Assembly: GCA_977017645.1 (NCBI GenBank)
Contig: OZ360232.1
Location: forward strand, 15,376,001-15,440,000
Length of the DNA stretch: 64,000 nt
Direction of reading: 5' to 3'
Source of the DNA: Torpedo marmorata
Taxonomy: Eukaryota
Positions 7,056-53,025 of this stretch are shown piece after piece; within the stretch, counting starts at the first letter, position 1, and each line of letters begins with the position of its first letter. The translations under genes and the position numbers were made by a program. The notes below the pieces were generated by a model. That model searched no databases. It was not told the DNA's origin and saw only the letters and a list, made by a program, of their open reading frames with translations.

Positions 7056-10000
7056 AGGCAATGTAATTTTAGATAAAAAATTATCAATTTTTGCAACATC
7101 TTGATTCATCTGCGAAGTGTATAAATTTTGATAGTACTCTCTAAATGAATTATTTATTTCTTGAGGTTTATAAGTTATTTCACCGGTACTTTTCTTTATA
7201 GCATTTATAGTTTTAGAAACTTGTTCTTTTTTTAATTGCCATGCTAAAACTTTATGTGCTCTTTCTCCCAATTCATAATATCTTTGCTTTGTTCTACCAA
7301 TTAATTTTTCTATTTTTCGAGTTTGTAATATATTATAATGTAATTTTTTCCCAATTAAACGTTGTCTCTTTCTCTGGAATTATACATGTCATTAATAAAG
7401 GTGAATGATCTGAGATTATTCTTGCTTTATAAGAAATTTGAGTTATTCTGTCTTGAATTTGTGAAGATATCAAAAACAAATCAATCCTTGAGAATGAATT
7501 GTGTCGAAAAGAATAGAATGAATAATCTTTTTCTCTAGGATTTAACTTCCTCCAAATATCTACCAAATTTAAATCATCCATTAAAGTATTAATTCTTTTA
7601 ACAGTTTTAATAGAGATTTGTTAGATTTACCAATTACAATGAGAGAAGTAGGTGAAGCTTTATCGTCATTGAAAAGTGGTAAATCTCCTGGTGATGATGG
7701 ATTTCCGATAGAGTTTTATAAGAAGTTTAAAGATTTATTGATACCTATATACATGGAAGTGTTGACTCAAATAAAGGAAACTCATTTATTACCGAAAACA
7801 TTTTTAAATGCTATTATTACAGTTATACCAAAGAAGGATAGAGATGTATTAAAAACTGAGTCGTATAGACCTATATCATTGTTGAATGTAGATTATAAAA
7901 TAATGGCAAAAATTTTGACAAATAGATTAGCTAAGTTCTTACCATTTTTAATACATCCAGACCAAGCAGGATTTATTAAAAATAGATATTCGAAGGATAA
8001 TATAGCAAGATTAATAAGTTTAATTAATTTACAAAAAAGGAAACAGGATTTGCCGTTAGTGATAGCATTAGATGCAGAAAAAGCATTTGATAGATTAGAA
8101 TGGAATTTTTTATTTAAGGTTTTAGAGAAATATGGATTTGGAAATACTTTTATAAATTGGATTAAGACTCTATATAAGGAACCTACAGCTAAAGTAATTA
8201 CAAATGGTCAAATATCATCTAAATTTTCTTTGACACGATCAACAAGACAAGGATGTCCTTTGTCACCTGCTTTATTTGTTTTGGTAATAGAACCGTTGGC
8301 TGAAATGATTAGGAAAGATATTAATATAAATGGGATTAAAGTAGGTGCAGAAGAGCATAAAATTAGTCTGTTTGCAGATGATGTATTAATATATATGACA
8401 AAATCTATTGAATCGCTTCAACAATTAGATAAGATATTGAGGGATTATGGTGAGATATCTGGATATAAAATAAATTCGGATAAGAGTGAGATAATGGCTT
8501 TATCTCAAGGAGACTATACTAAATGTAAAGAAGTTACAAAATTTAAATGGGCTAAAGAAGCAATTAAATATTTGGGAGTTAAAGTAGATACAAAATTGGA
8601 AAATTTATATAAATTAAATTATATACCTTTATTTCAGAAAATAAAGAAAGATTTGGATAACTGGAAAGATTTACCTATAACTCTAATGGGAAGAGTGAAT
8701 TGTATTAAAATGAATATTTTTCCAAGAGTTCAATATCTTTTTCAATCTATACCTTTTGGTATTCCTCAAAAATTCTTCAAAGATTTAAAAATTATTATTA
8801 GAAAGTTTTTATGGAAAGGAAAATTGGCAAGGGTAAGTATAGATAAATTAACTTGGGAACACGAAATGGGTGGATTACAGCTTCCCAATTTTCAATATTA
8901 TTACAAGGCAGCACAATTAAAATTTATTAATGAATTTTTTGATTTAACTAAAAATACGGCTTGGATTAATATTGAATTGAGTAATATAGGGGAAAGATAT
9001 AAGGAAGATATTATTTATAAATGGAATTCTAAACTATTATTAATTAAAAAGAAAAAGTCGCCGATTATTAAACATTTATTGGAAATTTGGACTCAGTTAG
9101 ATAATGAGATAGGACGAAAAGGATCAATATTTTTAAATATGCCATTATATCAGAATTTATTGTTACCTTTTTCTATTGATAACCAATTTTTAAAATTATG
9201 GTATCAAAAAGGAATTAAGAAGATTAAAGATTGCTTTGAGGCGGGAAGATTTGTTACTTTTTCTAGGTTGAAAGAAAAATTTGGAATAATGGATAATACA
9301 ATTTTGGCTTATTATCAGGTTAAAGGATTTTTAGTTGAGAAATTGGGGAATCAATTAATATCTCCTAGACAAGATGGATTAGAGTTACTAATTACTAATG
9401 GAAATGTTAATAAATTTATATCACAAATGTATAAATTACTTCAGAGAAAGATGCCTAAAGTAGGACTACATAAATCTAGATTAAATTGGGAGTCAGATTT
9501 AAATATTAGTATAGATGAACAACATTGGAAAGAATTATGTAAATTGAGTATGACTAAAATTATTAATGTTAGATATAGATTAGTACAATATAATTTTTTT
9601 CATCAATTATATATAACACCTAAAAAATTAAAGAAATTTAACCCGGCATTATCAGATATGTGTTTTAGGTGTAAAGATGAAATAGGTTCTTTTGTACACT
9701 GTACATGGTCATGTTTAAAAATTCAAAATTTTTGGTCTAAAGTTAAGGATTTTTTAGATAGAATTTTTAATATTACGATTCCAATGGATCCTATGATATT
9801 TTTATTTGGAGATATTAAAAAAATTAGTATTAGAAATAGATTGAATATGTATCAAATAGAATTTTTACGAATTGTGTTAGCGATTTCAAAAAAATGTATC
9901 GCTATTACTTGGAAATCAGATTTAGATTTGAATTTAGATAGATTACATGCAGAATTACGTTCTTGTATACCATTGGAAAAAATTACATATAATTTACGAG

Positions 10001-10377
10001 ATAAATATCATTTCTTTTTGAAAATTTGGAGCCCATATATGAGAATCATGGGTATGAATTAATTCTCTAAAAGTTAGTAACGCTGACAAAAGTAACCTCC
10101 AATATATAAGAAGAGTTAGCTTGTAATGGTTTTCTCCTCATACTAACTCTTAAAACTTTATTATTCATTCTATTCTTTTTTTTCTTTTAACTAATACTTT
10201 CTTTTTTTTCTCTTTCTTTTTCTTTTTCTTTTTATTAGAATAGTGTGGGAGGGTTGGGGAGGGGAGGGAGGGAGGGGGGGAGGTAATATATCACATGTAT
10301 TTTGAATGATATACTATTTTTGATTTATGTATTCTGTGATTTTAAAAGTTAAATAAAATTATAAAAAAAAAAATAAT
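7056..10377 (+). mobile_element. 5'-truncated, 5'-inverted L1-clade LINE (inverted 7056-~7600, forward ~7600-10377)
   Basis: 15-bp TSD aataatttgaacttt at 7041-7055 and 10378-10392; poly(A) tail; G-rich 3'UTR; near-identical to full-length L1 at 43906-49780. Confidence 0.92.
7618..10062 (+). CDS. L1 ORF2 C-terminal 814 aa (RT and Cys-rich domain), 5'-truncated
   Basis: YRPISLLN, LDAEKAFD, RQGCPLSP, LFADD, CFRC..HCTWSC motifs; open frame. Confidence 0.85.
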   Translation: MLDLPITMREVGEALSSLKSGKSPGDDGFPIEFYKKFKDLLIPIYMEVLTQIKETHLLPKTFLNAIITVIPKKDRDVLKTESYRPISLLNVDYKIMAKILTNRLAKFLPFLIHPDQAGFIKNRYSKDNIARLISLINLQKRKQDLPLVIALDAEKAFDRLEWNFLFKVLEKYGFGNTFINWIKTLYKEPTAKVITNGQISSKFSLTRSTRQGCPLSPALFVLVIEPLAEMIRKDININGIKVGAEEHKISLFADDVLIYMTKSIESLQQLDKILRDYGEISGYKINSDKSEIMALSQGDYTKCKEVTKFKWAKEAIKYLGVKVDTKLENLYKLNYIPLFQKIKKDLDNWKDLPITLMGRVNCIKMNIFPRVQYLFQSIPFGIPQKFFKDLKIIIRKFLWKGKLARVSIDKLTWEHEMGGLQLPNFQYYYKAAQLKFINEFFDLTKNTAWINIELSNIGERYKEDIIYKWNSKLLLIKKKKSPIIKHLLEIWTQLDNEIGRKGSIFLNMPLYQNLLLPFSIDNQFLKLWYQKGIKKIKDCFEAGRFVTFSRLKEKFGIMDNTILAYYQVKGFLVEKLGNQLISPRQDGLELLITNGNVNKFISQMYKLLQRKMPKVGLHKSRLNWESDLNISIDEQHWKELCKLSMTKIINVRYRLVQYNFFHQLYITPKKLKKFNPALSDMCFRCKDEIGSFVHCTWSCLKIQNFWSKVKDFLDRIFNITIPMDPMIFLFGDIKKISIRNRLNMYQIEFLRIVLAISKKCIAITWKSDLDLNLDRLHAELRSCIPLEKITYNLRDKYHFFLKIWSPYMRIMGMN

Positions 10378-35664: not shown

Positions 35665-36321
35665 CTGAAAAGTTACAAACACATATTTAGCTAGTTTCAA
35701 TTACACACTTTTTCAAATTATCAACACATATTTAATGTCAGGAACTCCAGTGCATATTGAACATTCAACTAGAATGCTAAAAAAATGGATATCTTCAAAT
35801 GTAAATTATCTATTGGAAAGTGAATACCATGCTTACCAGTGAGGTTGTCAAGCTATTAAAAAGTAATGATTAATTGTATTTTAATAGCACAATTAAACCA
35901 AAGTACAATACCACCAATTTACACATTGATTAATTGTTTGCTTAACAGTTATGAAATACTGGGTTTTTCTTTATTTATTATTAAAATTATTTTATTTTAT
36001 GGTTTCATTGATTTTTAGTTTGTAAATGATTCATAATGTTAAGAGATGTAAAATCACTGAACTTTTAAAGCATTGATAGGTAGCTATGCCAGGTATGCCT
36101 ATGTTACAAGCCAAAAAAAAATTAGCAGGTGTGCCTGCAGAGTTTGCTCTATCCACTCTCACCTTTGCCTGACATGTAATGGGAATGAAATCAACAGGAT
36201 TTCTTCATTTGCTATCTAAAGGTTCTTGCCGGCAAACCACACAAATTGTAAGACTGTGTGAGCAATGGGTGATAGTGAAATGTTAGACAGTAAAGGTAAA
36301 GATAACCTTCCTTAATCATAC

Positions 36322-36502
36322 CAATGTCATCATCAGTTCGGTCCACAGGATCCTTCTCCAGACACTCCCTAACAATATCCCTGCTCATCAATGGATCAGA
36401 TGCACGATCAATGTCCTCTTCATCTTCTTCCTCTTCTTCTGAATCTACTGCTGTTTCTGGAAGACCAGTAAGATCCATATCCCCCATTTCACTCTCTGTA
36501 GC
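36322..36502 (-). CDS. RAPGEF6: RAPGEF6 exon: [60 protein letters not shown]
   Basis: atacag| and |gtatga, 181 bp, phase 0 in / 1 out. Confidence 0.94.
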
Positions 36503-36609
36503 CTGTATAAAAATATTTGTGTATTAATCATGTGGCCATACTAAAACACCATTCAAAATAAACATTCAAAAATTTCCACCACAGAGAATTAAACAAGGTA
36601 TTTACAGTA

Positions 36610-39989: not shown

Positions 39990-41455
39990 AAGTCGTCAAG
40001 TTTATTGTCATCTGTTTGTATAAGTACAACCCGACAAAACTGCATTCTCCGGTCCTCGGTGCAAAACATGCAGACATACAACCAGATATAACACACATAC
40101 AGACAAACAGTACATATGCAGGACACATATAAATAAATAAATATTGTTTTGTACATATGAGAGTCTCGGATGGTTAGTGTGAGCAGTTCCTTTGGTCGTT
40201 CAGCATTATCACTGCCTGTGGGAAGAAGCTGTTCCTCAGCCTGGTGGTGCTGGCTCTGATACTCCTGTATCTCGTTCCCGACGGGAGCAGCTGAAAGATG
40301 CTGTGTGCAGGGTCCAAGGAGTCCTCAAAGATTTTGCGCACCATCTTCAGATAACGATCCCGGTGGATCACGTCAATGGGGGAGGAGGGAGATTCCAGTG
40401 ATCCTCTCTGCCACTCTTACGGTCCTGTGGATTGACCAACGATCTATTTCTCTGCAGCAACCGTACCACACTGTGATGCAGCCAGCCAGGACGCTCTCGA
40501 TAGAGCTCCTATAGAAGGTTGACATAATGGTGGCCGGTAGCCTTGCCCACTTCAGTCTTCTCAGGAAGTGCAGTCTCTGTTGCGCCTTCCTGACAAGTGA
40601 GGAGACGTTGAGTGTCCACGATAGGTCACTAGTTAAGTGAACTCCAAGGAACTTGGTGCTCTCCACTACAGAGTTGTTGATGTGTAGTGGAAGGTGGTCG
40701 TTCCTGGTCCTCCTGAAGTCCACGAACATCTCCTTCGTCTTGTCTATGTTGAGACTCAGGTTTTTACTCTCGCACCATTTCACGAGATTTTCCACCTCTT
40801 CTCTGTAGTGCGACTCATTGTTGTTGCTGATGAGGCCAACTACTGTTGTGTCATCTGCAAACTTGATGACACTGTTGGAGCTGGATCTGGCGATGCAGTC
40901 GTGGGTCAGTAGCGTGAACAGGAGCGGGCTGAGCACACAGCCCTGAGGTGCACCAGTGCTCAGCATGACGGTGCTTGACATTCTGCTTCCAACCAGGACA
41001 GACTGTGGTCTTTCCGTTACGAAGTCCAGGATCCAGTTACAGAGAGGGGTGTTGAGTCCCAGCGAGGACAGCTTCTTCACCAGCCTCTGGGGAATGATCA
41101 TATTAAACACTGAGCTGAAGTCAATGACTAGCACCTGGCGTATGAGGCGTTGTTCTCCAGGACGCAGTGAAGCGACAAGGCTATTGCATTGTCTGTGGAA
41201 CGGTTTCGCCTGTAGGCGAATTGAAATGGGTCCAGCGTCTCTGGGAGGTGTGCTTTGATGCGTTCCATCACCAGACGCTCGAAGCATTTCATAATGGTGG
41301 AGGTCAGTGCCACAGGGCGGTAGTCATTGAGGCCTGTTATTGTCGCCCTCTTGGGTATCGGGATGATGGTGGCTGTCTTGCACCCTCGGGAATGATGGAC
41401 TGCTGCAGTGAGGTGTTGAAGATGTCCGTGAAGACCTCCGTCAATTGGTCTGCCC
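39990..41455 (-). mobile_element. Rex1/Babar-like LINE, 5'-truncated RT region
   Basis: [43 protein letters not shown] motifs; frameshifts. Confidence 0.85.
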
Positions 41456-42126
41456 ATATGAGTTAAAATTAACTTGTCCTGACACTACTGGTTTTAGGGA
41501 CAGATAAAGCTCATCAAAATTCAGCCTATTTTGTTCAATGCCTATAAAGAAGAAGATAAAAAAACTGGATTTTGACTTCATCTTTAAAATAAAGACTAAA
41601 TCAAATGACCATGTGATAATATCAAGAGCCATTTTAAAATGGACTGTCCAACTTCTGAAATTATTCCTTGGCACCTCACCATTAACAACACGTTTTAGAA
41701 TATGAACGTGGGCTTCGATCATAAACTTGTAGGCCATTGAAAATAATGTTTGTCAGCAGACGCCCTCATACCATTACAGTTATAATTAAACATAAATTTT
41801 CTGCATTTTAGTGGAATAACACTGATTTGCCATGTTCTTCTTATTCCCTCAGGTGCTGAATCTGCCTCTTCTCCTTAGCAATCAATAATTTGAAACAATA
41901 GCATTATTAAAATTTAATGATTACATAAAGGAATTGAAACCATCCATCTAGCTACAGGATTATCAAAATTATTCTCAGAGTAACCTGGAACTGGTAAAAG
42001 TAACTTGTTTCTGGTTCTCTGGAATGTTGTGGTAAGCAAAATGCCAAATATTAATTTATTGAACAGATCAAACAAGTATGATTTGTTTGATACACACAAT
42101 ATGTATTGATACGCACAATACATAGT

Positions 42127-42341
42127 TGTGTTATTATGCGTGTAAATAAGAACTACACTTCCCAGCATGCAATGCACACAATTGCCAGATACCGGAAGTG
42201 ACATGTGAGGCCATTGTCATTTATTGTCGGTTGAAGACAGTTGGAAGTCGTTGGAGGCGGTGGAAGCAACACAAGGAAAATAAAGTCGGTTAACTGTTAA
42301 ACCTACGTAAAGTCGTTCTTCTTGAAAGAACAAGCTTAACA
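42127..42341 (+). repeat. 5' LTR (215 bp)
   Basis: tgtgttattatg...caagcttaaca; aligns end to end with 50732-50947; aataaa at 42279-42284. Confidence 0.93.
42152..42200 (+). promoter_or_regulatory. ZNF143/THAP11-type site (ACTACAcTTCCCAGCATGCAATGC) plus ETS site (ACCGGAAGTG) in the LTR
   Basis: Match to the known ACTACAnnTCCCAG SBS consensus and the CCGGAAGT ETS consensus; binding untested. Confidence 0.6.
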
Positions 42342-42355
42342 TGGTGTAAGAAGTG
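42342..42355 (+). promoter_or_regulatory. Primer-binding site, tRNA-Leu type (tggtgtaagaagtg)
   Basis: Immediately follows the LTR terminal CA; one mismatch to TGGTGTCAGAAGTG. Confidence 0.75.
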
Positions 42356-42390
42356 TTTGAGTGAGTAAGAGAAGACAATAGTTCGTAAGC

Positions 42391-43449
42391 ATAGATAAGT
42401 TAAGTCCTCCCACACTGATGCAGTTTACCAGCAATCTCGCCGATAATTGGAAATGCTTCAAACAGCGATTCAACATTTATTTAGAGCAGGTGTTCCCAAA
42501 CATTTTAGACCATCGACCCCTTTATGGAATCCTTGATCCCTCATAGACCACCAGGCATGTACAAATAAATAAATAAATAAATAAATAATAATGATGATTA
42601 AGTAGACGTGCAGTTTCCATATGCATTAGTGAGGGAAACTGCATACCATATGCATGGTGTCCGGGCCTCCCAGCAACAACCCAAACTTTGTTACAACACC
42701 CCAATCGCCAAGTAACAAACCTGTAAATTAAGCAAGCAAGTGATTACAATAACACTAAAAAAAAACCTTTGTTTCTGGCCGGGAAGATGCCAAATGGAGC
42801 TTGGTCCAAGTCTTCAGCATCGGCGACGGCGACTCCATTCTCAACATCAGGTGCGGTGCAGTTCGCATCGAAGAAGTCGACTCGGGCTCCCGGGCAGGAG
42901 AGGGAACCTCAGGCTCTACAATTCTTTCGACATCAAAAGTTCAATCGACCCCCTTTCAACCCACTGGCATTTTTCGACTCCTTGGATAGTCCCATCGACT
43001 CCCAGGGGTCGATATCGACCATTTTGGAGAACCCTGATTTAGAGGCTAGTGGAGCGGGAGAGACCGATGGAAAACGGAAAGCGTCTATATTTTTGCACGT
43101 GATGGGTGAAGATGCCTTGGACATCTATAACAGTTTCCAAATTGATGAGGCAGCTTTCACGTTGGACACTCTGATGACAAGATTTGAGGAGTATTCTGTC
43201 CCAAGTAAAAACGTCACGTATGAGAGATTCAAGTTTTTCTCCTGTGACCAGAAACAAGGTATGAGCTTCGACCAATACTTAGCCGAGCTTCACACACTGA
43301 GTAAGTCCTGCGAATGTGGAGATTTGAAAAATTCACTCATTAAAGACAGAATAGTTTGCGGAATCCCAAATAATGGACTTAGAGAAAGACTGTTGCGTGA
43401 AAAAGATTTCACACTGGAAAAGGCTGCGAATATTTGTAGGGCAGCAGAG
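42391..43449 (+). pseudogene. Gypsy (Mag-like) gag N-terminal part, split by MITE
   Basis: DKLSPPT..NLADNWKCFKQRFNIYLE|ASG...[11 protein letters not shown]...YERFKFF...QKQG..FDQY..EL...IKDRIVCGI...[23 protein letters not shown]; frame continuous once the MITE and one TSD copy are removed. Confidence 0.85.
42487..43036. mobile_element. hAT (Charlie-like) MITE
   Basis: Termini caggtgttcccaaa / tttggagaaccctg; perfect 8-bp TSD atttagag at 42479-42486 and 43037-43044. Confidence 0.88.
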
Positions 43450-43473
43450 ATGGCTCGCCATTTGCAAGAACAT

Positions 43474-43905
43474 AAGGAGAAGGCCCTGGAAATGCTGGAG
43501 CAGGTGAAAATATCCAAAGAAGTGGGTAGAGAGACTCTTATCAATGTTACCAGGACATTGTTACGCACAAAGGTCCACAACGAATTGGCAGCTGTCTTGG
43601 CAGAGGCTGTGGTCGATGCTGTTCTGACAGTGAAGAAACCAAACGAGTCAATGGATCTCTTCATTGTTGAAATTATGGAGATGAAACACAAAATAAAAAC
43701 AGAGTGACACACCTTGTGAAGGGAATAGTACTGGATCATGGTGCTCGGCACCCGGACATGAAGAAAAGGGTGGAAGATGCTTACATTCTCACCTGCTGCA
43801 TTTCACTGGAGTATGAAAAGACGGAAGTAAATTCTGGATTCTTCTATAAAAGTGCTGATGAAAAAAATAAAATAAAAAATTGTGCAAGCGGAGAGATAGT
43901 TAATT
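43474..43905 (+). pseudogene. CCT6A: Captured intron-less CCT6A (TCP-1 zeta) mRNA fragment, part 1
   Basis: KEKAL..LEQVK.SKE..RETL...RTKVH.ELA.VL.EAVVD...MEMKHK / [43 protein letters not shown]; frameshifts in A-runs. Confidence 0.9.
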
Positions 43906-44217
43906 TTTTTTTTTTTTTAATAATTTTATTTAATTTTTTAAAATCACAAAATACATATATCAAAAAAATAGTGTATTATTGAAAATACATGTGATATATT
44001 ACCACCCCCCCTTCCCACCCTCCCCTCCCCAACCCTCCCACGCTATCTAATAAAAAAAAAGAAAAAAATAGAATATAAAAATGTTAATTAAAAGAAAAGA
44101 AAAAGATTGAATAATAAAGTTAAGAAAGTTAGTGTTAGTATGAGGAGAAAACTATTTCAAGCTAACTCTACTTGTATATTGGAGGTTACTTTGTCAGCGG
44201 TACTAACTTCTAGAGAA

Positions 44218-47200
44218 TTAATTCATACCCATAATTCTCATGTATGGGCTCCAGATTTTCAGAAAGAAATGATATTTGTCTCGTAAATTATACGTAATTT
44301 TTTCCAATGGTATACACGAGCGTAACTCTGCATGTAATCTATCCAAATTTAAATCTAAGTCTGATTTCCAAGTAATAGCAATACATTTTTTTGAAATTGC
44401 TAACACAATTCGTAAAAATTCTATTTGGTACATATTCAATCTATTTCTAATACTGATTTTTTTAATATCTCCAAACAGAAATATCATAGGGTCCATTGGA
44501 ATCGTAATATTAAGAATTCTATCTAAAAATTCCTTGACTTTAGACCAAAAATTTTTAATTTTCAAACACAACCATGTACAATGTACAAAAGAACCTATTT
44601 CATCTTTACATCTAAAACACATATCTGACAATGCCGAATTGAATTTCTTTAATTTTTTAGGTGTTATATATAATTGATGAAAAAAATTATATTGTACTAA
44701 TCTATATCTAACATTAATAATCTTAGTCATACTCAGTTTACATAGTTCTTTCCAGTGTTGTTCATCTATACTAGTGTTTAGATCTGATTCCCAATTTAAT
44801 CTAGATTTATGTAGTCCTACTTTAAACATTTTTTTCTGAAGTAATTTATACATTTGCGATATAAATTTGTTAACATTTCCATTAGTAATTAATAACTCTA
44901 ACCCATCTTGTCTAGGAGATATTAATTGATTCCCTAATTTCTCAACTAAAAATCCTTTAACTTGATAATAAGCCAAAACTGTATTATCCATTATTCCAAA
45001 TTTTTCTTTCAATCTAGAAAAAGTAACAAATCTTCCTGCCTCAAAACAATCTTTAATCTTCTTAATTCCTTTTTGATACCATAATTTTAAAAATTGATTA
45101 TCAATAGAAAATGGTAATAATAAATTCTGATATAATGGCATATTTAAAGAAATTGATCCTTTTCGTCCTATTTCATTATCTAATTGATTCCAAATTTCCA
45201 ATAGATGTTTAATAATCGGTGACTTTTTCTTTTTAATCAATAATAATTTAGAATTCCATTTATAAATAATATCTTCCTTATTTCTTTCTCCTATATTACT
45301 CAATTCTATATTAATCCAAGCCGTATTTTTAGTTAAATCAAATAGTTCATTTATAAATTTTAATTGTGCTGCCTTATAATAATATTGAAAATTAGGGAGT
45401 TGTAATCCACCCATTTCGTATTCCCAAGTTAATTTATCCATACTTACTCTTGCCAATTTTCCTTTCCATAAAAACTTTCTAATAATAATTTTTAAATCTT
45501 TAAAAAAATTTTGAGGAATACCAAAAGGTATAGATTGAAAAAGATATTGAACTTTTGGAAAAATATTCATTTTAATACAATTCACTCTTCCCATTAAAGT
45601 TATGGGTAAATCTTTCCAATTATCCAAATCCTTCTTTATTTTCTGAAATAAAGGTATGTAATTTAATTTATATAAATTTTCTAACTTTGTATCCACTTTA
45701 ACTCCCAAATATTTAATAGCTTCTTTAGCCCATTTAAATTTTGTAACTTCTTTACATTTAGTATAGTCTCCTTGAGATAAAGCCATTATCTCACTTTTAT
45801 CCGAATTAATTTTATATCCAGATATTTCACCATAATCCCTCAATATTTTATCTAATTGTTGAAGTGATTTAATAGACTTTGTCATATATATTAATACATC
45901 ATCTGCAAACAAACTAATTTTATGCTCTTCTACACCTACTTTTATCCCATTTATATTAATATCTTTCCTAATCATTTCCGCCAACGGTTCTATTGCCAAT
46001 ACAAATAAAGCAGGTGACAATGGACATCCTTGTCTTGTTGACCGCGTCAAAGAGAATTTAGATGATATTTGACCATTTGTAATTACTCTGGCTGTAGGTT
46101 CCTTATATATAGTCTTAATCCAGTTTATAAACGTATTTCCAAATCCATATTTCTCTAAAACCTTAAATAAAAACTTCCATTCTACTCTATCAAATGCTTT
46201 TTCTGCATCTAATGCTATCACTAACGGCAAATCCTGTTTCTTTTTTTGTAAATTAATCAAACTTATTAATCTTGCTATATTATCCTTTGAATATCTATTT
46301 TTGATAAATCCTGCTTGATCTGGATGTATTAAAAATGGTAAAAACTTAGCTAGTCTATTTGTCAAGATTTTTGCCATTAATTTATAATCTACATTTAACA
46401 ATGATATAGGCCTATACGATTCAGTTTTTAATACATCTCTATCTTTCTTTGGTATAACTGTAATAATAGCATTTAAAAATGTTTTCGGTAATGAATGAGT
46501 TTCCTTTATTTGAGTTAATACTTCCATATATATAGGTATCAATACATCTTTAAACTTCTTATAAAACTCTACCGGAAATCCATCATCACCGGGAGATTTA
46601 CCACTATTCAATGATAATAAAGCCTCGCCTACTTCTCTCATTGTAATTGGTAAATCTAACAAATCTCTGTTAAGACTATTTAATTTGGGCAATGTAATTT
46701 TGGCTAAAAAATCATCAATTTTTACAACATCTTGATTCATTTGCGAAGTATATAAATTTTGATAATACTCTTTAAATGAATTATTTATTTCTTGAGGTTT
46801 ATAAGTTATTTCTCCAGTACTTTTCTTTATAGCATTTATAGTTTTAGAAACTTGTTCTTTCTTTAATTGCCATGCTAAAACTTTATGTGCTCTTTCTCCC
46901 AATTCATAATATCTTTGCTTTGTTCTACCAATTAATTTTTCTATTTTTCGAGTTTGTAATATATTATAATGTAATTTTTTCCCAATTAAACGTTGTCTCT
47001 TAGAAATTGTTTTATTTCTTTGAAAATCTTTTTCCATAACTTCAATTTCTCCCTCCAGTTTTTCTTCTTCTTTCACATAATCTTTTCTGATTTTTGCCGA
47101 GAAGCTTATTATCAATCCTCTTAAATATGCTTTTAAAGATTCCCAAATTATAAACTTATCTTCAACTGAATTATTATTAATTCTTAAAAATTCCTGAATT

Positions 47201-48003
47201 TCTTTTCTTATATATTCACAAAAATCTTTTCTATTTAATAAAGAAGAGTCTAATCTCCAGTTATATACAGTTTTTTCTTTCTCTGGAATTATACATGTCA
47301 TTAATAAAGGTGAATGGTCCGAAATTATTCTTGCTTTATAAGAAATTTGAGTTATTCTATCTTGAATTTGTGAAGATATTAAGAATAAATCAATCCTTGA
47401 GAATGAATTATGTCGAAAGGAATAAAATGAATAATCTTTTTCTCTAGGGTTTAACTTTCTCCAAATATCTACTAAATTTAGATCATCCATTAAATTAATA
47501 ATTCTTTTAACTATCTTAGGTCTAACAGATGTTCTAGATGTTTTATCCATATTTGCATTAAGACAACAATTGAAATCTCCTCCAATTAAAATATTTTCCT
47601 TAGCCTCAGATAAATGTAAAAAAGTATCTTGAATAAATTGTTCGTCCTCTGGGTTTGTAATATATAAATTTAAAAGGGTCCATATTTCTGAATAAATTTG
47701 ACAATGCACTAAAACATATCTACCAGCTATATCCGTCACTACTGATTGTATTTTAAATGGTAATTTTTTATTGATTAAAATCGCTACTCCTCTCGCTTTA
47801 GAATTAAAAGATGAAGCTACTACATGTCCTACCCATTCTCTCTTTAACTTTTGATGTTCTTTATCAATCAAATGCGTTTCCTGTAAAAAAGCTATATCTA
47901 CTTTTAATTTTTTGATATGTGCTAAAGTTTTTTTCCTCTTAATTGGGTTATTAAGCCCATTAACATTAATACTTACAAAATTTATACTTCTAGAATCAAC
48001 CAT
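44218..48003 (-). CDS. L1 ORF2p: APE endonuclease, reverse transcriptase, CCHC domain (1261 aa)
   Basis: SINVNGLN, LQETHL, GGDFN, SRIDLFL, SDHSP; LDAEKAFD, RQGCPLSP, LFADD; CFRC..HCTWLC; uninterrupted. Confidence 0.95.
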   Translation of the reverse strand: MVDSRSINFVSINVNGLNNPIKRKKTLAHIKKLKVDIAFLQETHLIDKEHQKLKREWVGHVVASSFNSKARGVAILINKKLPFKIQSVVTDIAGRYVLVHCQIYSEIWTLLNLYITNPEDEQFIQDTFLHLSEAKENILIGGDFNCCLNANMDKTSRTSVRPKIVKRIINLMDDLNLVDIWRKLNPREKDYSFYSFRHNSFSRIDLFLISSQIQDRITQISYKARIISDHSPLLMTCIIPEKEKTVYNWRLDSSLLNRKDFCEYIRKEIQEFLRINNNSVEDKFIIWESLKAYLRGLIISFSAKIRKDYVKEEEKLEGEIEVMEKDFQRNKTISKRQRLIGKKLHYNILQTRKIEKLIGRTKQRYYELGERAHKVLAWQLKKEQVSKTINAIKKSTGEITYKPQEINNSFKEYYQNLYTSQMNQDVVKIDDFLAKITLPKLNSLNRDLLDLPITMREVGEALLSLNSGKSPGDDGFPVEFYKKFKDVLIPIYMEVLTQIKETHSLPKTFLNAIITVIPKKDRDVLKTESYRPISLLNVDYKLMAKILTNRLAKFLPFLIHPDQAGFIKNRYSKDNIARLISLINLQKKKQDLPLVIALDAEKAFDRVEWKFLFKVLEKYGFGNTFINWIKTIYKEPTARVITNGQISSKFSLTRSTRQGCPLSPALFVLAIEPLAEMIRKDININGIKVGVEEHKISLFADDVLIYMTKSIKSLQQLDKILRDYGEISGYKINSDKSEIMALSQGDYTKCKEVTKFKWAKEAIKYLGVKVDTKLENLYKLNYIPLFQKIKKDLDNWKDLPITLMGRVNCIKMNIFPKVQYLFQSIPFGIPQNFFKDLKIIIRKFLWKGKLARVSMDKLTWEYEMGGLQLPNFQYYYKAAQLKFINELFDLTKNTAWINIELSNIGERNKEDIIYKWNSKLLLIKKKKSPIIKHLLEIWNQLDNEIGRKGSISLNMPLYQNLLLPFSIDNQFLKLWYQKGIKKIKDCFEAGRFVTFSRLKEKFGIMDNTVLAYYQVKGFLVEKLGNQLISPRQDGLELLITNGNVNKFISQMYKLLQKKMFKVGLHKSRLNWESDLNTSIDEQHWKELCKLSMTKIINVRYRLVQYNFFHQLYITPKKLKKFNSALSDMCFRCKDEIGSFVHCTWLCLKIKNFWSKVKEFLDRILNITIPMDPMIFLFGDIKKISIRNRLNMYQIEFLRIVLAISKKCIAITWKSDLDLNLDRLHAELRSCIPLEKITYNLRDKYHFFLKIWSPYMRIMGMN

Positions 48004-48270
48004 AATTAAATTTTGAACATTCTCTATCTGTCAGATCCGCCGACGCATCCCTCCTATTCCATTGATTACATATTTTCTCCTCAAATAGAATGAAATAATA
48101 GAAAAGTAAGAAAAAAGAACATCCCATAATTAACACTGGACTATATATCCCAGTGTTACCCCCCTCCGTCGCTCGAGAAGCGGTTCTAACCGCTAAAGTG
48201 GTGGTGGTTTCGGAAAAAGTCCCAATGAGTCCACCTCCCCCAGACAGATAATTATTCATACATTTTATAT

Positions 48271-49650
48271 TCAGTTAACTCCTCTCAAATTTTCACTTTC
48301 TTCTTCGATTTGAACCAACGCAGCTTCTTCAGTTATCGAACCCGGCACTTCGTTCTCTCTTCTTGCTTGACCTTCTTGCACTTGCTGAATAGCACCCAAA
48401 GTGTAGACTCTTCTCAGATGTGGAAGATTATTTGCATGTAACAGGGCTTGTTGAGAATCCATAAATAAAATAGAACCATCACCATTTTGAACTCTCAGAG
48501 TCGCCGGATATTTAAACGAAAATTTGTAACCTTTCTCCCACAATTTTGCCTTCGCAGGATTAAATTCTTTACGTTGTTTGACCACCATAGGACTTAAATC
48601 AGGATAGAATAAAATTCTATTCTCTTGAATCATCATCGGGGCACCATGCTCTCGTGTATGTTGAATTGCTAATCTTAAAATTCTTTCTCTGTCTTGATAT
48701 CTTAAACACTTTATCAAAATTGGACGTGGTCTCCGATCTATCTGATTTCTCCTTCCAATCCTATGGGCACGCTCAAGCTCTATTGGTTGGTCAAATTTAA
48801 AAATCTCCTTCAACCAATCTTGAAAAAATTGAGTCGTATCTAAAGTTTCAAAATTTTCAGGTAGTCCCAATATTTTCACATTATTTCTGCGACTTTGATT
48901 TTCCATCTGATCTATTTTCTGCATCATTTCATCTCTCTGCTTTTGCCATCCAACAAAGGTATCTTCCATTTTATCCACTCTGTCTCTACAATTTTCCACC
49001 TCGTATTTATTAGATTCAGTTTCCTCTTCCATTCTTTTGACTCTTACATCCACTTTACCTACAACACTTTCCAATCTTCCCATTTTCTGTTTTATATCTG
49101 TAAATTCATTTTGCATTTTACTTATAGCTATATTAAGCTTAGCATCCATTCTTCCTTCTAATTTTGCAATAGCCTGTAAGATGTTTTCTTGACTATTTTG
49201 AATCAACCATAATTGTCTTTGCACATCACCTCCATATGCTTCAAAATCTTCAGCATCCTCTTCTTCCAGCTGGCTATCTTCTTTTTCCCCTTCAGATTCT
49301 GACGATGATTTGGGCTTCCCAGCCTGTAGTATAGTCTGGGAAGCCTCCGATGACGTCATCCTGGCCTCGTGTAATTGTAGTTGGAGATCGGCGATTCTGC
49401 GCATGCGTGCTTGTTCTTCTAATCTTTTTGTAGTCTTAGGTCGGGCGCCGGCGCCATCTTCCGCAGCTCCCTGCGGAGGTAGCGTCGGCGTTCCCGACTC
49501 AGCTGATCGTTTGCCAGGTCGCTTACCAGGCTTCATCTGTAGGACAGTCCCAGGCTCCATCTCCAAGGTAGGCCTTTTCTCTTCATGTAATAAAGTCGTC
49601 TGTAGCATAGGTTTTTTAGCTTTTTGTTCTCTCGTTTTTTTGCCAGCCAT
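48271..49650 (-). CDS. L1 ORF1p (coiled coil, RRM, CTD; 459 aa)
   Basis: MENQSRRNNVKILGLPE, ELERAHRIG, PRPILIK, FYPDLS, KYPATLRV motifs; position upstream of ORF2. Confidence 0.92.
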   Translation of the reverse strand: MAGKKTREQKAKKPMLQTTLLHEEKRPTLEMEPGTVLQMKPGKRPGKRSAESGTPTLPPQGAAEDGAGARPKTTKRLEEQARMRRIADLQLQLHEARMTSSEASQTILQAGKPKSSSESEGEKEDSQLEEEDAEDFEAYGGDVQRQLWLIQNSQENILQAIAKLEGRMDAKLNIAISKMQNEFTDIKQKMGRLESVVGKVDVRVKRMEEETESNKYEVENCRDRVDKMEDTFVGWQKQRDEMMQKIDQMENQSRRNNVKILGLPENFETLDTTQFFQDWLKEIFKFDQPIELERAHRIGRRNQIDRRPRPILIKCLRYQDRERILRLAIQHTREHGAPMMIQENRILFYPDLSPMVVKQRKEFNPAKAKLWEKGYKFSFKYPATLRVQNGDGSILFMDSQQALLHANNLPHLRRVYTLGAIQQVQEGQARRENEVPGSITEEAALVQIEEESENLRGVN

Positions 49651-49795
49651 TCTTTAAACAGTTATAGCACTTCTTATAATATTCTTAATTTTTTTGAGTT
49701 ATTTAAAAAGTCTTCTTAGTTTTATCTGCTGGGAGAGGTGTATCCCTGCGTCTTCTCCCTACGCCATCACGCCACGCCCCGAGAGATAGTTAATT

Positions 49796-49834
49796 GAAGA
49801 CAGAGTTAATAAAATTATAGCACTGAAAAAGAAA
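49796..49834 (+). pseudogene. CCT6A: CCT6A fragment part 2 (continuation after the L1)
   Basis: (VQAER*LI)[13 protein letters not shown] vs CCT6A VKAERKFIEDRVKKIIELKRK. Confidence 0.8.
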
Positions 49835-49859
49835 TTGGCAAAATGGAAATAAGAGAGAG

Positions 49860-50070
49860 GAACTGCTTATGGGCCCGACAGAGAGAGAAAATGAATGAAG
49901 AACACAATAAGCGACTGTCAGACACAGTGGACAGATTGTTGACAGAGTCTAATGAGCGACTTCAGCTGCATCTAAAAGAAAGAATTGCTACATTAGAGGA
50001 TAAGAATATATCGATACAAGAATCTTAACTCTTAAGAAAACAACTTGAAGAGTCTCTTCATGATAAGGAA
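49860..50070 (+). pseudogene. PPFIA2: Captured liprin-alpha (PPFIA2-like) coiled-coil mRNA fragment
   Basis: [37 protein letters not shown]...IQES*LLRKQLEESLHDKE; [12 protein letters not shown] and LEESLHDKE favour PPFIA2 among the paralogs. Confidence 0.85.
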
Positions 50071-50656
50071 TTGGAAAATGCAAACCATCTTCTTTCAACT
50101 ATAAAGCTTAAAGGAGCCGCCACACTATCAGAAGGGGAATTGGCAGCTACGTCGCCCACTGCAGTAGCTTCTGAAGTGCCACCGTGAAGAATATGAACGT
50201 GTGCAAAAATCTGTGGCAAATCTCTCAGCAAATTAGAAGATGCCATGAAGGAAATACGCTGTTTACAAAAATGCACTGATGAGGCGAAAAAGCATGATTC
50301 ATTATTCAACAGGAGAATCAGAGATAAAAAAGGCAAGTGTCAGATCTTTCACAGTAGAATAGGGTGCTTTTGATGGAACTAGAAGATATGCGAGGAAATC
50401 ATATTTTACGTAAAGATGAAGTTAGTTCTGCTGACATAAGAAGTTCCTTTGAAGTGATTTCTCAGCATCCGGTGACCTATCGTAATGTTGAGGAACTGCA
50501 ACAGCAAAATCAACAGCTACTGGTGACTGTTCGTGAACTTGCTGATAAACAGGAACCTCTTCACGGATTTCTGAACTTCAGCTGAATCTCGCGGATGCCC
50601 TGAATGAACTTGAACGACTTCGTGAAGCCAGAAGTCATCAGATGCAACTGGTGGAA
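50065..50656 (+). pseudogene. TPR: Captured TPR (nuclear basket protein) coiled-coil mRNA fragment with internal deletions
   Basis: KELENANHLLS...LSEGELAATSPTA / REEYERVQKSVANLS / [12 protein letters not shown]...[31 protein letters not shown] / SSRISELQL...HQMQLVE. Confidence 0.88.
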
Positions 50657-50718
50657 AGAGACTGTCCACGGAATGTAGATACTTTTGTTGTAGACATAGT
50701 ATTGTGTTTGTGTTTTTT

Positions 50719-50731
50719 AAAAGGGGAAAGA
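50719..50731 (+). promoter_or_regulatory. Polypurine tract (aaaaggggaaaga)
   Basis: Directly abuts the 3' LTR TG. Confidence 0.85.
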
Positions 50732-50947
50732 TGTGTTATTATGTGTGTAAATAAGAACTACATTTCCCAGCATGCAATGCGTGCGGTTGGGCTGAAACCA
50801 GAAGTGACATATGAGGGCATTTTCAGTTATTGTTGGTTGAAGACAGTTGGAAGTCGTTGGAGGCGGTGGAAGCAATACAAGGAAAATAAAGTCGGTTAAC
50901 TGTTAAACCTACGTAAAGTGTTTCTTCTTGACAGAACAAGCACAACA
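50732..50947 (+). repeat. 3' LTR (216 bp)
   Basis: tgtgttattatg...caagcacaaca followed by TSD atagt. Confidence 0.93.
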
Positions 50948-51214
50948 ATAGTGACCTCCATTATTGTATTGTGGATTACAAGAACAGGTTCTAATCATCA
51001 TTCTCTACCAATGCTATCATTTCATTTCATCTACTCTTAAATTCTCTCACCATATAAACTTTCCAATGGCTTATCCTTCAGTTTCACCACCATTGGTCAC
51101 TTTATTTCCATTGTTATGACCAAGGGCAAGGAATTCTCTGTCTGTTTTTACACCGCCTTCCTTTTCTTTCCTTTCCCATCTCCACTTTCTCTACATTAAC
51201 TCATAGAAGAGATT

Positions 51215-52210
51215 CATCATTTATTGTCATCTGATTGCACAAGTACAACCAGACAAAACAGCGTTCTCCAGTCCTCAGTGCAAAACACGCACACAACCAG
51301 ACATAACACACATACAGACAAATAATACATATGCAGGACAAGTATTCATGCATACAAATAAATAAATAGTTTCGTAAAATGAGAGTCTCGGATGGTTAGT
51401 GTGAGCAGTACCTTTGGTCGTTCAGCATTCTCACTGCCCCTGGGAAGAACCTGGTGGTGCTGGCTCTGATACTCCTGTATCGCTTTTCCGACGGGAGCAT
51501 CTGAAAAATGCTGTATGCGGGGTGGGGTGGAAGAGGTCCTCAATGATTTTGCGTGCCCTCTTCAGATAACAATCCCGTAGATCACGTCAATTTGGGGGAG
51601 GGTGGGGTGGTGGGGGGAGGAAGGGAGACTCCAGTGATCTTCTGCCACTCTTATGGTTCTGTGGATTGACCTCCGATCCATTTCTCTGTAGCAACCATAC
51701 CACACTGTGATGCAGCCAGCCAGGATGCTCTCGATAGAGCTCCTATAGAAGGTTGACATAATAGTGGCCTTTTAGCCTTGCCCACTTCAGTCTTCTCAGG
51801 AAGTGCAGTCTCTGTTGCGCCTTCCTGACAAGTGAGGAGATGTTGAGTGTCCACGATAGGTCACTAGTTAAGTGAACTCCAAGGAACTTGGTGCTCTCCA
51901 CTCTCTACTACAGAGTTGTTGATGTGTAGTGGATAGTGGTCGTTCCTGGTCCTCCTGAAGTCCACCAACATCTCCTTCGTCTTGTCCATGTTGAAACTTA
52001 GGTTGTTACTCTCGCACCATATCATGACATTTTCCACCTCTTCTCTGTAGTGCGACTCATCGTTGTTACTGATGAGGCCAACTACTGTTGTGTCATCTGC
52101 AAACTTGATGACTCTATCGGAGCTGGATGTGGCGAAGCAGTCGTGAGTCAGTAGCATGAACAGGAGCGGGCTGAGTACATAGCCCTGAGGAGCGCCAGTG
52201 CTCAGCGTGA
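51215..52210 (-). mobile_element. Rex1-like LINE fragment, same family as 39990-41455
   Basis: [26 protein letters not shown]; near-identical 3' tail. Confidence 0.85.
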
Positions 52211-53025
52211 TTCATTTGCAACCATACATTAACAGCTTAGGCTAAACATGCCCTCAATAAATGTGCCACTATTACTGGTAGTTTTGCTCACCTCAGCTTT
52301 AATGTATTTACATTCCTCTATTTAAGCAGAGTCCCATCATCAATCCCTCAAGTTTAAGGAGAATATGTTGAGGATGAAGGGTTAACCTTAGGAAGTTTGG
52401 ATTGATGGGCAAAGGAAAGAAACAGTTTAAACTATGGCAGAAATAATTGGAACACTGGTTATAATATTAAGGATAAAGAAGTCCATCAGCTCAATGGAAA
52501 TCATTTTTCTGAGATGATCCATGAAAAGGAAAACGTATTATTAAGGGGAACAAGTCTGAATATGTTTGATGTGATGCTGTCAGATCTGGCAATCATGAAC
52601 ATGATTTGACTTTCCAAGCTTCACTAAACTACCCGAAGGATATATGCAGAATGTTTGTTCCAAAACTTGGTTAGGAGGTTTTTAACAGTTCAATTTCCTT
52701 ACATGCTAGACACTTGGAAGGCCAAAAATCTCCATACTGGGATATCTAGAAACTCTAATACAGAAATAAATAAAAGATTTACCCAGACTCAAATATCTGC
52801 TATTGTAAGTAAACCAAGATCTTTTAAATGTCCATCTGTTATAGAGCAGGATGACTCTATTAGTAATTAAGAGTTTTGAATCAATACTGAAAGCATATTT
52901 AGTCCTTGACATTTACCTAACTGTAAGAAAAAGCTAAATAACTCTAAAATTACAGGAGAATTCAATGTACGATGACAATCATCAGCACCCTTAATCATAT
53001 AAAGGGCATTACATTCAGTATAGGA

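Follow-up and report, generated by a model that had tools for sequence, protein, structure and literature searches.

Pieces of spliced host mRNA joined in frame with gag in a non-autonomous Gypsy family of the electric ray Torpedo marmorata

The window analyzed here, a 64,000-nucleotide stretch of Torpedo marmorata contig OZ360232.1 (assembly GCA_977017645.1, positions 15,376,001 to 15,440,000 of the forward strand), is occupied at window positions 42127-50947 by one LTR element, which displays the hallmarks of a Ty3/Gypsy element: TG...CA LTRs, here 89% identical to each other, and a 5-nt target-site duplication (42122-42126 and 50948-50952). All element features lie on the forward strand unless stated otherwise. 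The 5' LTR (42127-42341) is adjoined by a sequence at 42342-42354 that we take, from the usual anatomy of Gypsy elements, to be a candidate primer-binding site, and the 3' LTR (50732-50947) is preceded by the 3' UTR and polypurine tract of the element (50657-50731), which match those of a gag-pol helper. Between these ends lie the first 167 codons of gag (42391-43449), identified by the Pfam domain Retrotrans_gag and by paralogues, with the start codon lost, a MITE inside and the zinc-knuckle 3' part deleted; a remnant of a type III intermediate-filament mRNA encoding the end of coil 2B (43447-43479); a CCT6 mRNA piece of approximately residues 127-200 that continues in the Gag frame and ends at a stop characteristic of variant A of the family (43477-43707); and CCT6 sequence past this stop, recognized by sequence matches (43708-43905). 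The final CCT6 bases (within 49781-49857) are followed by a decayed piece of liprin-alpha-2 (PPFIA2) mRNA (49858-50070) and by a TPR mRNA piece (50065-50656), which is supported by host exons and Pfam, shares a 6-nt microhomology with PPFIA2 at 50065-50070, and returns to the element just past the pol stop; in this copy, the TPR piece carries a private out-of-frame deletion near 50168.

Two later insertions interrupt this arrangement. The MITE in gag is a hAT-type element of 550 nt with terminal inverted repeats (42487-43036, without assigned strand), flanked by an 8-nt duplication (42479-42486 and 43037-43044) and absent from the same site in 22/22 scorable variant A copies (spacing, 33-45 nt). 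Within CCT6, a full-length L1 on the reverse strand (43906-49780) is bounded by a 15-nt duplication (43891-43905 and 49781-49795), and both of its frames are open, spanning 460 and 1270 codons when counted between stops. This L1 is 94% alike to a second copy at window 7597-10090. Comparison with other copies shows that the element changes from variant A to B within 49781-49857: it is A up to approximately 49834 and B from 49858, within a single target-site duplication. The copy in the window is a recombinant of A and B that is now dead, having also acquired a private deletion, the MITE and the L1.

An earlier sequence-only reading proposed that, once the MITE and one copy of its duplication are removed, a single frame runs from 42391, probably a former ATG, through gag and into some 250 codons of CCT6 before ending at a frameshift in an A-run. 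The frame itself holds, because the removed 550 + 8 = 558 nt are a multiple of 3 and both sides are in register, and a start codon is present at the position of 42391 in 58/62 scorable paralogues and lost in the window. The open frame at 42727-43707 matches Retrotrans_gag (E 0.003) and then Cpn60_TCP1 (E 3e-9). Its composition had to be revised: the whole frame comprises 252 codons, only approximately 76 of which are CCT6, and the residues MARHLQEH, which separate Gag from CCT6, are the end of the filament coil 2B piece, identified by its match to vimentin in the PDB (residues 293-386, E 2e-26) and by host exons. Furthermore, the closing frameshift (43705-43707) is not a lesion of this copy, as 27/31 variant A copies have it.

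The apparent gag/CCT6 join, an 11-residue stretch in translation, is the product of a private in-frame deletion of 819 nt with a 4-nt microhomology at its breakpoint (43447-43450), which took out the zinc-knuckle part of Gag, the piece termed GOL below (presumably GOLGA4-like) and most of the filament piece. Paralogues in the same genome align to the window only from 43447 onward, with gag located approximately 810-820 nt upstream in 8 of the 9 copies fetched, and the spacing from gag to 43447 in a copy with an unbroken frame is 819 nt. The sole genomic match to the 25-mer spanning the window join, with up to 2 mismatches allowed, is the window itself. The paralogue layout, the filament remnant and the unique join 25-mer together rule out a direct capture of CCT6 by gag. 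Being a private accident, this join carries no information on the ancestor, and its being in frame is a chance-level event, since among private deletions at least 10 nt long, 26/79 are also in frame.

The window copy belongs to a non-autonomous Gypsy family in which pol has been replaced by pieces of spliced host mRNA, and six cargo variants sharing gag and LTRs were distinguished. Variant A consists of gag, a piece termed GOL, filament and CCT6 (at least 55 copies, by junction matches); B of gag, protease, PPFIA2 and TPR (at least 240 copies, by junction matches); C of gag, coiled-coil gene X and CCT6 (46 candidates); D of gag, a longer GOL piece, gene Z and gene W (13 copies); E of gag and TPR (3 copies); and F of gag, 6 GOL codons and TPR (2 matches, one with gag). 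These variants lack reverse transcriptase (RT) and integrase, while helpers with the same LTR and gag encode gag-PR-RT-RNase H-integrase, which marks the cargo variants as non-autonomous derivatives. Helpers were found in at least 324 places by a protease/RT 24-mer; the pol order protease-RT-RNase H-integrase was seen in one helper (L156) by Pfam, and gag, protease and LTR are common to helpers and variants. The divergence between LTRs of a pair has a median of 6.6-8.4% (38 copies scored). All element-to-host joins lie at or past the end of Gag, Gag is intact in all six variants, and the whole frame is interrupted somewhere in every sampled copy.

All of the cargo is in sense orientation and spliced. 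At least eight host genes have donated, and seven donor parents were located exon by exon; an intron-bearing CCT6 parent gene was not found in the own genome, despite dozens of intronless CCT6 pieces. CCT6 mRNA contigs occur in sequencing runs presumed to be RNA. Six of the eight characterized donors contribute coiled-coil or long-helix segments, and TPR is present in three variants. Pfam recognizes Filament, LIP-1 and TPR domains in the cargo, and helices are predicted at residues 2-73 and 140-295 in GOL/Z, with pLDDT >84 over most of their length. Searches of Pfam, the PDB and the atlas yielded no names for GOL, X, Z or W, which we tentatively take to be GOLGA4, CCDC150, CEP131 and C2CD2-like, respectively. 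In the 3' parts of A and C (e.g., L041 3020-3330, and L117), a further piece with its own stop and an apparent 3' UTR follows CCT6, and in one C copy the sequence returns, in frame, to the end of the integrase. Two near-identical D copies (L187 and L188), one of which is on a 93-kb contig, represent a possible haplotig or segmental duplicate.

The reading frame was evaluated in 31 A, 43 B, 20 C and 13 D natural copies, the window halves being counted in; 7 duplicate B loci, 3 further duplicates and copies without both anchors, which are not scorable, were dropped before counting. Cargo frames were set by the spliced host exons, in which a single frame is open, and in the case of CCT6 by a ray homologue. 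Tallies of indels at segment edges contain alignment spill-over and were used only within true cargo bounds. The gag/GOL join is in frame in 22/25 A copies, in which it includes one deletion, and in 9/12 D copies; a second GOL deletion taken together with the GOL/filament join is in frame in 28/30, and the filament/CCT6 join in all 30 scorable copies. The GOL skip is in frame in 11/12 copies and GOL/Z in 6/10, and Z/W is so in 5/9 when judged by anchors and in 9/9 when the join text itself is read, three copies sharing an upstream -2. The corresponding figures are 39/40 for protease/PPFIA2, 10/13 for gag/X and 17/20 for X/CCT6. At PPFIA2/TPR, which had been read as in frame in the window, 29/31 scorable B copies including the window copy agree. 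Thus, the commonest form of each of 12 independent joins is in frame, and the exceptions seen are small indels near the join. To these 12/12 joins from the four multi-copy variants, the two rare variants, whose loci were picked by gag DNA alone, add 2/2 (E gag/TPR, 3/3 copies; F gag-GOL/TPR, 1/1 scorable of 2), so that the family-wide frequency in the Gag frame is well above one third.

Microhomology of 2-8 nt was read at most joins, in part only at GOL/filament, and with GOL/Z as an exception. Splicing was considered as a general joining mechanism, with several joins near exon ends, and was rejected: spliced-mRNA microhomology explains those of them for which the next exon was fetched, and GOL/Z may be an exception. 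The share of exact microhomologies between donor pairs that are in frame is 0.36-0.63 per join, giving a product of 3e-5 for the 12 joins; this share climbs from 0.39 at 3 nt to 0.56-0.62 at 9-10 nt. Compared with private deletions, the 12/12 joins stand against 26/79 at 10 nt or more (Fisher p 9e-6) and 11/23 at 30 nt or more (Fisher p 0.002). Among B private deletions, 8/18 of those of 20 nt or more and 8/13 of those above 50 nt are in frame; the true null may therefore lie near 0.6, in which case 0.6^13 (calculated by hand) is about 0.001 for 13 multi-copy joins. The large deletions common to at least 3 B copies also keep the frame (-99 in 10 copies and -324 in 3 copies). Regarding ascertainment, a protein query led to C, and DNA queries led to the other five variants. 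When 50 loci were taken on the basis of gag DNA alone, no out-of-frame host piece was found at a gag or protease join, several of these loci being truncated by insertions and the B joins being scored in part.

The residues of the cargo present a different picture from its frame. In all of the variants, private changes are neutral, with nonsynonymous-to-synonymous (N/S) ratios of 2.4-3.4 and frequent stops. Changes shared between copies in the cargo amount to 34 N/14 S (N/S 2.4, against 3.0 for private changes; p 0.5), so that no purifying selection on cargo residues is seen, in a test with little power owing to the star-like shape of the families; a dN/dS near 1, which the sequence-only reading had named as counting against its inference, is thus what the cargo shows. 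In gag and protease, shared variants number 46 N/39 S versus 1114/329 for private ones (p 6e-6), and amino-acid changes are depleted; without CpG sites the shared figures become 24/11 (p 0.21), and the signal could stem from recombination with helpers. A low copy-versus-host pN/pS (0.6-1.0), or the 55 N/36 S among fixed cargo differences from the host, was rejected as proof of selection: change along the host lineage would by itself produce 41 synonymous differences and so explains the synonymous part. Similarly, 6/9 filament amino-acid differences are host-lineage changes when Narcine is used as the outgroup. The host filament gene (L097), the first exon of which is 99% identical to a Tetronarce protein, shows six host-lineage amino-acid changes in 87 codons versus at most 2 synonymous changes since capture, and this electric-ray filament is possibly evolving fast. 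A stop is never the majority state among the 1414 cargo codons. Altogether, the frame is conserved, and conservation of cargo residues is without support.

Frameshifts shared by many copies indicate how much of the frame matters. In A, the frameshift near CCT6 residue 200 (27/31 copies) leaves approximately 1.1 kb untranslated before the 3' LTR, and A nevertheless reached at least 55 copies; hence, a full-length frame is not required. Other shared frameshifts are a -19 nt near the TPR end in B (13 copies), a -1 near CCT6 residue 140 in C (11 copies) and a -2 at the end of Z in D (3 copies), and a -2 within gag is found in 4/31 A and 3/13 D copies. Two in-frame CCT6 deletions, which may have arisen before or after the A stop, sit past it, and B sub-lineages have lost 33-108 cargo codons. 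CCT6, which is frameshifted in two variants, is the most dispensable part of the cargo.

From the observed structure, host donors, intron loss, microhomologies, frames, helpers and copy counts, we infer, with about even confidence, that variants spread only where translation ran from Gag through in-frame host filler, the fusion acting in cis. In this scheme, host mRNA pieces would join element RNA by template switching at microhomology inside particles; such switching is the established model of capture in LTR-mediated retroposition (PMC5131818). Selection would then filter captures for an open Gag-led frame, and the fusion would carry the RNA that encodes it into particles assembled with Gag-Pol from helpers, much as the gag-pol fusion of the non-autonomous mouse IAP 1-delta-1 is reported to act in cis (PMC6466679). 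The host piece would serve mainly as frame-holding, largely helical filler replacing Pol, its exact residues being of small importance. A and B RNAs were probably co-packaged and recombined into the window copy, since this copy joins an A 5' end to a B 3' end inside one target-site duplication. The sequence-only reading had proposed an ancestral Gag-host fusion protein or a filter for translatability; the filter finds support in the other joins (14/14), whereas a working host part does not, the cargo residues showing no constraint.

The in-frame joins would also fit if the open frame were kept only for survival of the RNA, a stop right after gag producing a 2-kb 3' UTR and hence decay, with the protein irrelevant. 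Neutral cargo residues, the distal position of the tolerated frameshifts, and the ends of two variants (B a few codons from the usual pol stop, D at a host stop) also agree with this possibility; we consider it unlikely, because A was amplified with its stop far ahead of the 3' LTR, shared gag changes are skewed to synonymous ones, and Gag is whole in all six variants. Conversely, the host coiled coils on Gag may aid oligomerization or particle targeting, be it to the nuclear basket via TPR, to the centrosome or to the Golgi. The helical nature of six of the eight characterized donors (X by atlas leads), the recurrence of TPR and the position of variant-wide frameshifts after a coiled coil, twice in CCT6, would favor such a function. 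However, cargo residues are without constraint, donors are interchangeable, B sub-lineages shed codons, and coiled-coil codons yield more in-frame microhomology (0.63 for PPFIA2/TPR), which would produce enrichment without function; functional cargo appears distinctly unlikely to us. A broader version, in which coiled coils of host proteins (TPR, liprin, filament, golgin and centrosomal) were taken up time and again by a vertebrate Gypsy family as working Gag extensions that help parasitic RNAs to enter helper particles or to steer them, is a tentative idea that we likewise hold to be unlikely; if true, it would represent protein-domain shuffling selected at the transposon level.

It is also conceivable that no selection was involved, microhomology between coding RNAs favoring in-frame joins and the searches favoring readable variants. 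The rise of the in-frame share with microhomology length, the large private B deletions (8/13 in frame), the origin of variant C from a protein query and the neutral cargo N/S would all be expected, but 14/14 joins are in frame against a null of 3e-5 to approximately 1e-3, the other five variants came from DNA queries, and the gag-DNA-chosen loci, with B joins partly scored, contained no out-of-frame host piece at a gag or protease join; we regard this account as quite improbable. Finally, mimicry of host genes might camouflage the RNA, as has been proposed for captured plant genes (PMC13317346), or some copies might have been domesticated by the host, and chimeric contigs in presumed RNA runs would be compatible with either. 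Neither predicts a reading frame, the neutrality of private changes extends to all variants, and no sampled copy has an unbroken whole frame, which makes such accounts extremely improbable. Selection for translation of a Gag-led fusion in cis is the explanation that we favor.

Defective oncogene-transducing retroviruses are helper-dependent and carry gag in frame with spliced host coding sequence, like the ray family, and selection in these viruses acts on the activity of the host protein in tumors. In the ray family, by contrast, cargo residues are without constraint and no env was seen. The family conforms to LTR-mediated retroposition in its intronless exons (seven host genes), join microhomology and secondary retroposition (at least 55 and at least 240 junction matches). 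In the cases of Tan et al. 2016 (PMC5131818), internal ORFs are likewise replaced by partial intronless mRNA, with join microhomology, several parental genes, secondary retroposition and sense orientation; the retrocopies described there have few copies, and "in frame" refers to the parental protein, whereas the ray family has six variants, at least eight donor genes, the gag frame and tens to hundreds of copies. Maize Bs1, an LTR element with three host-gene pieces and a chimeric ORF, is similar as well, but is present in 1-5 copies and has a single set of switch points (PMC5131818, PMC13317346); in the ray, a vertebrate Gypsy family whose helper is present has arrived at this outcome independently more than once. 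Mouse IAP 1-delta-1 is also non-autonomous and helper-dependent, with a Gag-led fusion frame aiding its own transposition in cis (PMC6466679), but there Gag is fused to the element's truncated pol instead of host mRNA, and the element is an ERV rather than a Gypsy element. The bovine ERVK D-type, ETn and recKoRV elements resemble the ray family in having a central segment swapped while the flanks are kept, and in being trans-complemented and abundant, but their fillers lack an intact ORF (PMC10924933), whereas the ray filler keeps its frame. A literature search reaching few subscription journals and no repeat databases returned no report of this ray element. The ray family is a case of LTR-mediated retroposition resembling Bs1, from which its recurrence, copy number and gag-frame rule set it apart.

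Gene capture by LTR elements is usually viewed as a matter of rare, few-copy accidents, and here it is serial, drawing on at least eight genes within one family. That the spreading variants kept one Gag-led frame provides a natural replicated test of the need of non-autonomous LTR elements for their own translation, a need argued so far mainly from the mouse IAP, of which the 1-delta-1 study is reportedly that of Saito et al. 2008. The family also illustrates a route by which chimeric ORFs that join several genes in frame are produced in hundreds of copies in the germ line of a vertebrate. At the same time, annotations of CCT6, TPR and liprin in this genome are confounded by element copies.

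Expression data consist of runs guessed to be RNA, which contain contigs of spliced host mRNA. Low-depth contigs bridging gag/GOL are found in three of these presumed RNA runs, from one study and with a differing organism label, and low-depth contigs bridging PPFIA2/TPR in two of the same three runs; intronic copies or DNA could yield both. An exon-like frame on the reverse strand at window 36212-36523, which presumably resembles RAPGEF2/6, raises the point that the LTR element may lie antisense within an intron near this frame, and such a placement matters when RNA data are read. Fragments of LINE reverse transcriptase, 92-99% alike, lie on both sides of the element (window 40373-41323 and 51641-52211). 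The gag linker of the family contains a 30-nt unit (10 residues), which is present in 1-2 copies in most elements and has expanded in frame to 13 and more than 30 units in two of them (L124 and L189).
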